Made by a program: the position numbers. 64,000 nucleotides of DNA, taken from the NCBI RefSeq assembly GCF_002854065.1, contig NZ_CP024150.1. One strand, given 5' to 3'. The stretch comes from Escherichia coli. Lineage in GTDB: Bacteria; Pseudomonadota; Gammaproteobacteria; Enterobacterales; Enterobacteriaceae. The first letter of the stretch is position 1; each line of letters starts with the position of its first letter. Shown here one piece after another: positions 27,901-30,053 of this stretch.

Positions 27901-30053
27901 TCATAAAAAATTATTGTATTAAGCAAAGTGAATCGATGTCTCCAGGTAATACTTCCGTAATAAAATATAAAAGTGAAGACATTTACTTACCTCATGGTTA
28001 CTTGATATTTATGCAAAAAAGGAATGATAATTCATATATGTGTTTATCTTTGCTTGAAAATAACAAAAAATCGTTCAATCTTGATCAGTTATATATCATT
28101 TCTTTTTTAACAGGTGTTGAGGGAGCATATTATGAAAAAGGTGAAATAAAAAAGCCATCAATTTTATTTAGTCCTGTGAATGTCAGCTCATTAAATATTC
28201 CAGAAAATCAGTTCTCATCATCAAGAATGCCAGCGCTTTATTTTATAGGTGACGAGCGCTCCTGACTAATATATCACGGAGTGATTCTTTAGAATTCTGA
28301 AGAGCTAGTATGTAGAAGTACTGTTTATTATATCCTTAACGATATTACCCATGCAATAAGAGACTTTATCATTAGATGTTATAGTGTACTCAGGATTCAT
28401 TAATATAACTATGGATTATACTACCGAATGAATCGAAAAGATTTATACTGTAAACACGCTAAAGTCATGGCCAGTTTTGTTAACCATTACAGTGCTGATC
28501 TTGCCCCACCATTTTTGCCATGCGGTTAAGTAAGAAAACTCTTAGTCCGAGGAGACTCACATGACAAAACAGTATTACTTAGCAAAAAATCGTAAACAAC
28601 ATTCACCTGAATTTTACAGTGAAGATCTGATGCTTGCGGAACACATCAGTGTTGCTGCCTCGGCCCGTGAATTCAGTATGTATGAGTTGAACTTAAACCC
28701 CCTCGCGATGTGAAAGGTACCTTTGAGCTGCGGTTTATTCGCAAAAATCATACGCGCATTACGCACATGGATCGGCAAATCCTTTCCTTTTACGCAAAAG
28801 GCATGACACGCGTCAAATCGTCTCCATTTTCAAAGAGATGTACGATGCGGATGTGTCGCCACGCTGATATCGAAAGTCACGGATGCCGTTTAGGAGAATG
28901 TCACTGAGTGGCAAAATCGCCCGCTTGATACACTGTATCCCATTGTTTATCTTGACTGTATTGTTGTGAAAGTCCGTCAGGATGGTAGCGTAATTAGCAA
29001 GCCCGTATGCTTAATGCTCGTAATCAATACCGAAGGCCACAAGGTGTTGCTGGTAATGCGGATAGAGGAGAACGAAAAGGCGAGATTCTGGCTGAGCGTG
29101 CTGACAGAACTGAGAAATTAGGGGCTGGAAGACATTCTCATCTCCTGTTTTGATAGTCTGAGAGCTTCCCGGACTCAATAAATAGCGTATGTCCACAGAC
29201 GCGTGTATCGTTATGCATATGATCCACAACAGCCTGTAATATGTTACTTGGAAAGACTCAAAGCTGTGATGCGTGATCTGAAGGCGATTAATTGGGGACC
29301 GACGGACGAATCAGTACGCAAAGTGATCTGGCATACAACTGAGGCGGCGGCGACAAAATGGACAATGTCGTTCATCAACTGTCGGTTGGCTATGAGTCGA
29401 TTTATTATCGAATACGGTTGTCGCCTGAGCGGCCACCTTTAATCGTGGCAAAGAATGTTAAAAAATTCTCACCATTCCCAAGAACACCTGTCTACCATGT
29501 CTCCGGCTCGTACAATTCATGCCGGGGACCATCACTGCGACAGCAGGACGGCTGACGTTCTTGTTTTCCTCTTGTTTATTTTCTTCGTCCAACGCGCCTG
29601 CTTCACTGATACTAGTACCGTGCAGATGTTGGCTCTGTCAGATAAATTGGAGTAGTAATACATTGATTTTTCATTAAAATAACTATGTGATTACATCATA
29701 AATTCGAGGGCCAACCTCGACAGGCTTATTAACACGTCAGCTCAGAAAAACTGTGTATACACTTAATGATTTTGTTATGGATTTACTGATGAAATACATT
29801 ATTGTCGGAAGCATCTTCGGCATGGTTATGTTCAGCATCATAACCATCGTGTTGCCGCTCGTCATAACAGCACACAATAAAATCAGCAGAAACAATACCG
29901 AGTAACCGTTTTCTTATGCCGTTTGCAGAGCACCTTCCCCTCGAGTGGATACAGCACTGTCTGACGCTTTCTACGCCTGTGACCATTCGTTGTCAACGCC
30001 ACGATTTTTAACCGTTATTTGCCATTTTCATGCCCGCTAAAATACTTTCGTTA

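Follow-up and report, generated by a model that had tools for sequence, protein, structure and literature searches.

A 64,000-nt stretch of an Escherichia coli plasmid (contig NZ_CP024150.1, assembly GCF_002854065.1), here called the window, carries a small open reading frame (ORF) at 29753..29905 on the + strand, lodged among fragments of insertion sequences (IS). On comparative sequence evidence this ORF is a conserved and real gene of an unannotated family of predicted single-pass membrane proteins of 46-51 aa, whose relatives lie in filamentous prophages (inoviruses) of Enterobacteriaceae, between a regulator gene and the phage attachment site. Our overall reading, held with moderate confidence, is that the window copy is a relic of this filamentous-phage family and that the protein is an accessory factor of the phages.

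The small ORF and its relatives

The preliminary description of this region had placed a 42-aa ORF at 29778-29906. The ORF is present, but its coordinates had been shifted by +1, and the range then given translates to a stop-filled frame. With its stop codon TAA at 29903-29905, the frame specifies 42 aa from an internal ATG at 29777 (MDLLMKYIIVGSIFGMVMFSIITIVLPLVITAHNKISRNNTE) or 50 aa from an in-frame GTG at 29753 (VYTLNDFV-MDLLMKYIIVGSIFGMVMFSIITIVLPLVITAHNKISRNNTE). The 50-aa form seems the more likely product, because the closest homologue, on a 684-bp metagenomic contig (L015; 84% aa identity), carries an ATG exactly at the position of GTG 29753. The single transmembrane helix proposed earlier is borne out by one hydrophobic segment at residues 16-34 of the 50-aa form, which is also its best 19-residue window (mean Kyte-Doolittle value 2.62), and T occupies codon position 2 in 26 of the 50 codons. 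The segment is flanked by acidic residues on the N side (D6, D10) and basic residues on the C side (H41, K43, R46). The length of the ORF alone is within chance, the window holding 249 ATG-initiated ORFs of at least 42 aa and the local 1.2 kb holding 10; its conservation in other elements exceeds chance.

The preliminary description had made its case depend on conservation, and the ORF is conserved. Homologues of 46-51 aa, 46-84% identical, occur in 11 inovirus loci with three different backbones and form three sequence clades. A tblastn search located a 56% identical ORF, in two copies, on a plasmid of Citrobacter youngae; six small clusters of 42-51 aa emerged when 5.8 billion proteins were searched with a profile, and a scan of IMG/VR identified nine viral contigs (4.7-9.6 kb) that carry homologues. 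Exhaustive HMMER searching of 1.84 billion representative proteins matched the small-protein family itself and one 509-aa ORF; the latter (P0007) is repetitive and was rejected as spurious on inspection. No match to the small ORF was found by tblastn in the INPHARED phage collection. At the nucleotide level, just 8 of the 5,426 complete E. coli genomes contain the exact segment, each time on a plasmid. Another 16 E. coli genomes have a multi-copy stretch in the chromosome to which window positions 29716-29895 are 77% identical. Exact-pattern scans of metagenomes recovered only another copy of the same plasmid (L021, 99.9%), and those of viral contigs gave no intact phage of the window subtype. 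The donor element of the window allele has been seen only as the 684-bp contig L015.

Substitution patterns point to coding on the + strand. Over 34 ungapped codons, the window ORF and its Citrobacter-type homologue (L005) differ by 11, 3 and 20 changes at codon positions 1, 2 and 3, respectively (chi-square p = 0.002), and three phylogenetically separate close pairs give summed changes of 9, 5 and 18 (p = 0.016). The pooled ratio of non-synonymous to synonymous change (pN/pS) is 0.33 in the sense (+1) frame, 0.62 in +2 and 1.76 in +3, compared with 1.09, 0.38 and 2.24 in the -1, -2 and -3 frames. Because of the 11/3/20 pattern and the sense-frame ratio of 0.33, we conclude that the + frame encodes a real protein family. 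Replacements in the sense frame are conservative (I/L/V/M), and an alignment of the family shows D6, D10, L12, K14, G23, M24, F27, I30, P35, H41 and K43 to be invariant.

Public annotation suggests otherwise. PGAP leaves the region unannotated in this plasmid and, in two plasmids only, annotates an ORF on the - strand alone; the + strand ORF is unannotated in every RefSeq record inspected. The antisense call in pMTY14664, an 83-aa 'hypothetical protein' (WP_162535357.1; L004 3145-3396, equivalent to window ~29784-30035, - strand), might then be the real gene, or the + strand might hold just a chance ORF over conserved DNA, since ORFs of comparable length are common in the window and both antisense frames are open there. 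The PGAP frame (-1), however, has a pN/pS of 1.09 and hence no constraint, and in the window the -1 ORF (29783-29986) spans the junction between the phage relic and an IS4 fragment and is therefore chimeric. In the + frame it is codon position 2 that is most conserved (3 of 34 changes) and position 3 least, the start and stop positions are conserved beside the attachment site in three clades, and the six protein clusters were called in that frame independently by gene finders. We regard the non-coding or antisense explanation as largely refuted and very improbable, and WP_162535357.1 as a likely spurious annotation.

Filamentous prophages that carry the gene

Wherever there is enough flanking sequence, the locus is a filamentous prophage. 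That on the Citrobacter youngae plasmid (L005) is a tandem 8.8-kb inovirus; it encodes a replication endonuclease, small proteins of coat type, a protein resembling that of gene III, Zot/pI and a pIV secretin. A second backbone, unrelated to that of L005, is found in E. coli AF34 (L020) and in contig L006, where it abuts hipA/hipB. In E. coli cM8a (L003; NZ_CM176589.1 2472368-2480538) the element is a 3.66-kb tandem unit (~1089-4751) that comprises a G2P replication protein (PF05144), a gene V protein (PF02303), an 87-aa protein, a 201-aa protein with multiple helix-turn-helix motifs, the regulator, the small ORF and the attachment site (attP). This mini-inovirus has no coat or assembly genes and up to four matching places per E. 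coli genome; it looks like an RS1- or TLC-style satellite and is seemingly undescribed. The source phages are not close to deposited phages, Zot being at most 35% identical (31-35% to the gene I proteins of fs2 and f1).

Gene order is the same in 11 of 11 loci: a regulator gene of 60-71 aa, divergent from the replication gene, is followed on the same strand by the small ORF and, after 5-12 nt, by attP. The attP is conserved over ~100 nt, again in all 11, and consists of a G+C stem between two inverted dif-like sites (AGTGCGCACAATGaCGTTATGTaTAAAAAGGCCGCTGCGG...CGCAGCGGCCTTTTCAACATAACGCGTGTCACATTATGCGCAC). Within its distal XerC arm the contigs and prophages stop and host DNA takes over. The hipA/hipB genes that flank the prophage in L006 and L020 mark the chromosomal dif neighbourhood, where CUS-1 also lies in UTI89. 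The arrangement of two inverted dif-like sites has been described for the attachment sites of CTXphi and YpfPhi (PMC4266046), and dif/XerCD integration has been published for related phages (PMC4266046, PMC7307601). The source elements thus combine what defines CTXphi-type, XerCD-dependent integrative inoviruses among the mobile elements that integrate by means of Xer (IMEXs), namely the attP, inovirus core genes (rolling-circle replication protein, ssDNA-binding protein, coat proteins, pI/Zot and pIV secretin; from the annotations of L005 and L020, and PF05144 and PF02303 in L003) and integration at dif, often in tandem. At the level of predicted gene content and attachment sites, they are shown to be filamentous prophages of Enterobacteriaceae that integrate via the host XerCD/dif system.

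The RS2 region of CTXphi in Vibrio cholerae offers the closest parallel in layout: rstR is divergent from rstA, and attP is formed from two inverted dif-like sites. CTXphi shares with the elements described here the divergent regulator, which occupies the same position, the inverted dif-like attP, tandem integration at dif and satellite-like derivatives without morphogenesis genes. It differs in that we know of no gene between its rstR and attP, and the regulator of the present elements is from another family of small proteins (phrog_2503).

The proximal part of attP (dif-like site plus G+C stem; 69-92 nt, 81-88% identity) was also observed in ~929 E. coli genomes. Without the small ORF it is widespread on chromosomes and on many plasmids of IncF size, with 484 places on plasmids, and these parts could be other IMEXs or their plasmid scars.

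The regulator matches phrog_2503, and its relatives are named RstR, repressor-like protein or TraY in the sources; it has no Pfam or PDB sequence match. Its AlphaFold model, an extended N-terminal segment followed by two helices (predicted local distance difference test score 90), is compatible with a ribbon-helix-helix fold, and Foldseek matches of the model to Arc, ParD, PrpA and Reg576 are all non-significant (E > 1). The gene stands in the position of YPO2273 in YpfPhi (PMC4266046). Regulator alleles are 36-53% identical to one another (L003, L005, L006, L009, L013 and L020) and combine with membrane-protein alleles in varying ways. Identical membrane proteins occur with regulators that are 36-47% identical (L020 and L006: membrane proteins 100%, regulators 36%), and identical regulators with membrane proteins that are 46-50% identical (L006 and L009: regulators 100%, membrane proteins 50%). 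The membrane-protein allele tracks the phage backbone, not the regulator allele. This pattern suggests that recombination often takes place between regulator gene and small ORF, like that of rstR immunity types in CTXphi, and would tie the peptide to whatever distinguishes the backbones, be it receptor and entry, assembly or attP.

The same reassortment bears on whether the two genes form an addiction module, in which the regulator would be the protein antitoxin and autorepressor of a membrane-peptide toxin and the pair would stabilise the prophage or its replicative form. The constant regulator-then-small-protein order (11/11 loci) fits such a module, and the ParD and PrpA antitoxins are among the structural neighbours of the regulator model, all of them weak and non-significant. 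Free exchange of alleles is nevertheless unexpected for a cognate binding pair and argues against a cognate antitoxin and toxin; partners in a type II-like toxin-antitoxin system evolve together, and these do not (100% against 36%, 100% against 50%). There is, moreover, no toxin-antitoxin match in PADLOC or Pfam, the relatives of the regulator are called RstR or repressor-like, and an intact toxin without its antitoxin in eight plasmids is hard to explain unless it is silent. We consider an addiction module distinctly unlikely.

Possible functions of the membrane peptide

The preliminary description had left the choice between a small membrane protein and a type I toxin. The first is upheld by a frame conserved in three clades, by substitutions of the coding type and by the one transmembrane segment. 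The second would be a small pore-forming or depolarising peptide that stabilises a plasmid or prophage, with its mRNA under the control of an antisense or trans-acting small RNA (sRNA). The ORF does resemble type I toxins (Hok, Ldr, TisB, Ibs, DinQ/DqlB) in its size, below 60 aa at 42 or 50 aa, in its single hydrophobic helix and in its missing annotation. It differs from them in having no family match, no antitoxin RNA that could be found and, in every intact homologue, the context of a phage regulator/attP module. Searches with the peptide against Pfam and NCBIfam (at E up to 10), PADLOC (up to 1), PHROGs and PDB sequences gave only noise; they did not place it in any described toxin family (Hok, Ldr, TisB, Ibs, ShoB, DinQ, Zor, Fst and others), and Rfam, at E up to 1, had no match to the region, whether sRNA or other.

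Some features of the leader and the antisense strand could nonetheless be read as those of a toxin locus. The small peptide lacks a Shine-Dalgarno (SD) sequence, GGCTGACGTT in the leader is complementary to bases 5' of the start in six leaders, resembling the fold-back seen in mRNAs of type I toxins, the ORF contains one antisense promoter-like site, and the Citrobacter-type phage has a terminator-like hairpin on the - strand just upstream of the ORF start. The promoter-like sites, however, are within chance (3, compared with 1.4 +/- 1.1 in shuffles), and the antisense one is not conserved when the aligned E. coli and Citrobacter homologues are compared manually. The long-range leader pairing shows no compensatory change; a consensus fold of the six leaders contains no compensatory pairs or structure supported by covariation, and single-sequence folding is unremarkable (z = -1.7). 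The gene is always part of the phage module and never stands alone as a repeated locus on the chromosome. These comparisons do not support its assignment to a type I toxin family, and we think a role of this kind quite improbable.

The leader repeat is an observation in its own right. Its 10-nt arms, GGCTGACGTT (29548-29557) and ACGTCAGC (29736-29745), lie ~190 nt apart, the second just 5' of the start codon, and are conserved in 6/6 leaders (alignment columns 121-130 and 319-328). The repeat could be an mRNA fold-back, an operator pair or a single-stranded DNA hairpin.

Signal-less coat and tip proteins of inoviruses have an acidic N-tail, a hydrophobic core and a basic C-tail, and the small protein has the same design. 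It might therefore be a virion or assembly component, similar to the Pf3 coat or to pVII/pIX, that acts with the adjacent hairpin (attP, possibly a packaging signal). The membrane-protein alleles track the phage backbone and not the regulator, the small ORF always adjoins the large hairpin, and the 3.66-kb mini-element keeps it despite having no coat genes of its own. Coat and tip genes, however, stand in the structural module, between the gene for the ssDNA-binding protein and gene III, and on its strand, and the small ORF lies on the strand opposite all structural and assembly genes, co-oriented with the repressor. The Citrobacter-type backbone already has small hydrophobic proteins of 46, 56 and 80 aa in the canonical pVII/pIX/pVIII position, the net charge of the C-tail is only +1 to +2, and no PHROG structural family is matched. 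A structural role is accordingly unlikely in our estimation.

For the favoured accessory role, the position of the gene and the character of its product can be combined as follows. The protein would insert in the inner membrane with its N-terminus out and its C-terminus in, because of the acidic N-tail and basic C-tail, and the conserved G-S-x-x-G-M, Pro35 and His41 may mediate helix-helix contacts. It occupies an accessory slot between repressor and attP in which other dif-integrating inoviruses place unrelated cargo. Accessory ORFs in such a slot have been described, namely YPO2271/YPO2272 of YpfPhi, orf1/orf1a of CUS-1 and the reverse-oriented ORFs next to dif in UPphi901 (PMC4266046, PMC7307601). 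Like the small ORF, they stand beside a dif-like att site, co-oriented with an RstR-like regulator and divergent from the replication gene, and their prophages are also XerCD-integrating and often in tandem. The slot ORFs of YpfPhi and CUS-1 are unrelated to the small ORF, those of CUS-1 in UTI89 being 140 and 369 aa long, whereas a 46-51-aa single-pass protein accompanies three backbones here. The ORF has matches in 24 E. coli records; ECONIH2, which the UPphi paper cites, is not one of them.

The most plausible task for an inner-membrane prophage factor of this type is entry control or exclusion, that is, the blocking of related phages, and we put this forward tentatively, as a possibility with less than even chances. 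The model is PfsE (PA0721) of the Pseudomonas phage Pf4, a 30-aa inner-membrane protein that blocks superinfection by binding PilC (PMC8764522). PfsE and the product of the small ORF are both very small membrane proteins of integrative inoviruses, but PfsE is 30 aa long and encoded in the structural operon, whereas the product described here has 46-51 aa and is encoded beside the repressor and attP. The two have no sequence similarity, the YAWGW motif is absent from the family alignment, and they share no PHROG or Pfam family. To our knowledge, PfsE is the only characterised inovirus protein of such a kind.

Several observations count against our reading of the ORF as a relic of a phage-encoded accessory gene. 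As to coding, the -2 frame is nearly as good as the sense frame (pN/pS 0.38) and is open in all homologues. Its low ratio can be explained because it shares wobble positions with the sense frame; its best-conserved site would be codon position 1, not 2, and it has no conserved start. The sense frame is preferred over it only by this asymmetry between positions 2 and 1 and by the start/stop architecture. As to the family, it has been seen in only six protein clusters and a few dozen loci, and a scan of one genome per species gave zero confirmed relatives. As to function, the small protein resembles neither PfsE nor any described family in sequence, and we infer an exclusion role only from position and analogy. 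The E. coli-type elements have a spacer of 340-380 nt with a terminator-like hairpin between regulator and ORF, and co-transcription of the small ORF with the repressor is not established in them. As to the plasmid copy, the window ORF is intact in all plasmid copies though both flanks are lost. Compared with a 95%-identical contig (L016), it differs at 3 of 153 sites (V-to-L and M-to-L) while the upstream sequence differs at 26 of 304; the lower divergence of the ORF could mean that it is still used, but the numbers are too small to show selection on the plasmid copy. Between the window and pMTY14664 the ORF has two synonymous and zero non-synonymous differences.

The plasmid copy and its surroundings

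Homology to L015 extends from about 29540 to 29906 with 78% identity, so that ~365 bp of the phage module is kept, consisting of a conserved non-coding leader (29540..29752, +) and the complete ORF. The last ~40 nt of the leader (CTCGACAGG..TTAACA.CGTCAGCTCAGAAAAAC) are common to all E. coli-type homologues. Past the stop codon, L015 and all the phages run into a dif-like site, whereas the window runs into unrelated sequence and then an IS4 fragment; phage homology stops 1-2 nt past the stop codon, at a breakpoint in 29906..29920, and the dif-like attP is gone. The window contains no regulator gene or other inovirus gene, and no dif-like site or attP stem anywhere; the absence of attP marks the copy as a relic and not an element. 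The sequence after the stop codon was considered as a hybrid Xer site and dropped, there being no dif-like site or attP stem in the window. IS-associated rearrangements have removed the regulator gene and attP, and the copy is therefore an orphan left by an integrative phage that at one time resided on this plasmid of enterotoxigenic E. coli (ETEC) type or entered it by recombination.

A second relic lies at 421..712 on the - strand. It consists of a leader and the first 17 codons of the ORF, and is 88% identical to positions 3796-4088 of the E. coli chromosomal element L003. The truncated ORF copy (418..471, -; MQGMILVLLMKYLIGGS, then a stop) breaks off after codon 17 at the terminal repeat of an IS3 element, and its stop codon comes from that element. 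The two relics are of different alleles, and the plasmid therefore bears two independent scars, having been scarred at least twice by such elements.

Expression of the intact copy is a separate matter. No SD sequence precedes either candidate start (ATG 29777 or GTG 29753), in keeping with the earlier remark that the 42-aa ORF lacks a convincing one. A consensus scan found no sigma-70-like promoter on the + strand upstream of the ORF but did detect a terminator-like hairpin (29545-29561) some 190 nt before it. Because promoter-like site and SD are absent, the hairpin lies upstream and the phage partners are gone, the copy is probably silent or expressed only by read-through, and it is doubtful that it is functional here.

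The IS debris described earlier around the ORF was confirmed. On the left is an IS256-family transposase pseudogene (28561..29448, +), homology to which ends near 29448; positions 29449-29539 lie between it and the start of the relic. On the right is an internal fragment of an IS4-family transposase gene (29921..29989, +) without its N- and C-termini, followed by IS21 istB, an IS3-family element inside IS21, and IS21 istA. The first 37.6 kb of the window are 99.99% identical to the IncF plasmid NZ_AP027791.1 from a human faecal E. coli isolate.

A full type IVb pilus operon (~14100-28265) encodes a major pilin, a TcpQ-domain protein, a secretin, PilO2, GspE/F-like proteins, a retraction-type ATPase, a prepilin peptidase and PilV-like minor pilins. 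Its last genes, for a prepilin-like protein and a PilV-family protein, are followed by the IS256 pseudogene, and the small ORF lies 1.5 kb downstream of the operon on the same strand. Adjoining an IS3 copy and the pilus operon is a pseudogene annotated as 'cholera enterotoxin subunit B' (~13283-13662, +), which is LT-B-like and has an internal stop. Together with the phage relics it recalls the pairing of CTXphi with the toxin-coregulated pilus (TCP); a physical link was not found. Elsewhere in the window, RefSeq annotates dqlB (~9049-9146, - strand), a gene for a type I toxin like DinQ; it is a genuine small-toxin locus with no relation to the ORF, and the colicin V immunity gene cvi stands beside a frameshifted cvaC remnant (~33980-34430, -) as truncated cargo near IS fragments.

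The object in the window is itself ordinary, a small mobile-element relic among IS fragments that is most likely silent. The gene family is real and unannotated, and accessory small proteins beside the att site of dif-integrating filamentous phages are a known kind and not a new system. A bolder proposal, to which we give little credence, is that the peptide founds a new family of inovirus inner-membrane proteins that act, like PfsE, on host entry or pilus machinery (Tol, or the platform of a type IV or conjugative pilus), and that the intact copy kept directly downstream of the type IVb pilus operon continues to modulate piliation or to keep out filamentous phages that depend on pili. If this were true, the two relics, the eltB remnant and the TCP-like pilus would be traces of a CTXphi-like association of phage, pilus and toxin in E. 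coli.

These comparisons point to a micro-protein gene of enterobacterial filamentous prophages that is missing from RefSeq annotation, Pfam, NCBIfam and PHROGs and is overlain by a spurious antisense call in two plasmids. They also indicate that an ETEC virulence plasmid was scarred at least twice by dif-integrating filamentous phages. The module of regulator, membrane peptide and attP, common to three unrelated inovirus backbones and with repressor alleles that swap, is a compact system for studying expression on the repressor side of these phages. If the peptide should turn out to act in exclusion or to modulate pili, PfsE would be the only inovirus protein of that sort to have been described before it.

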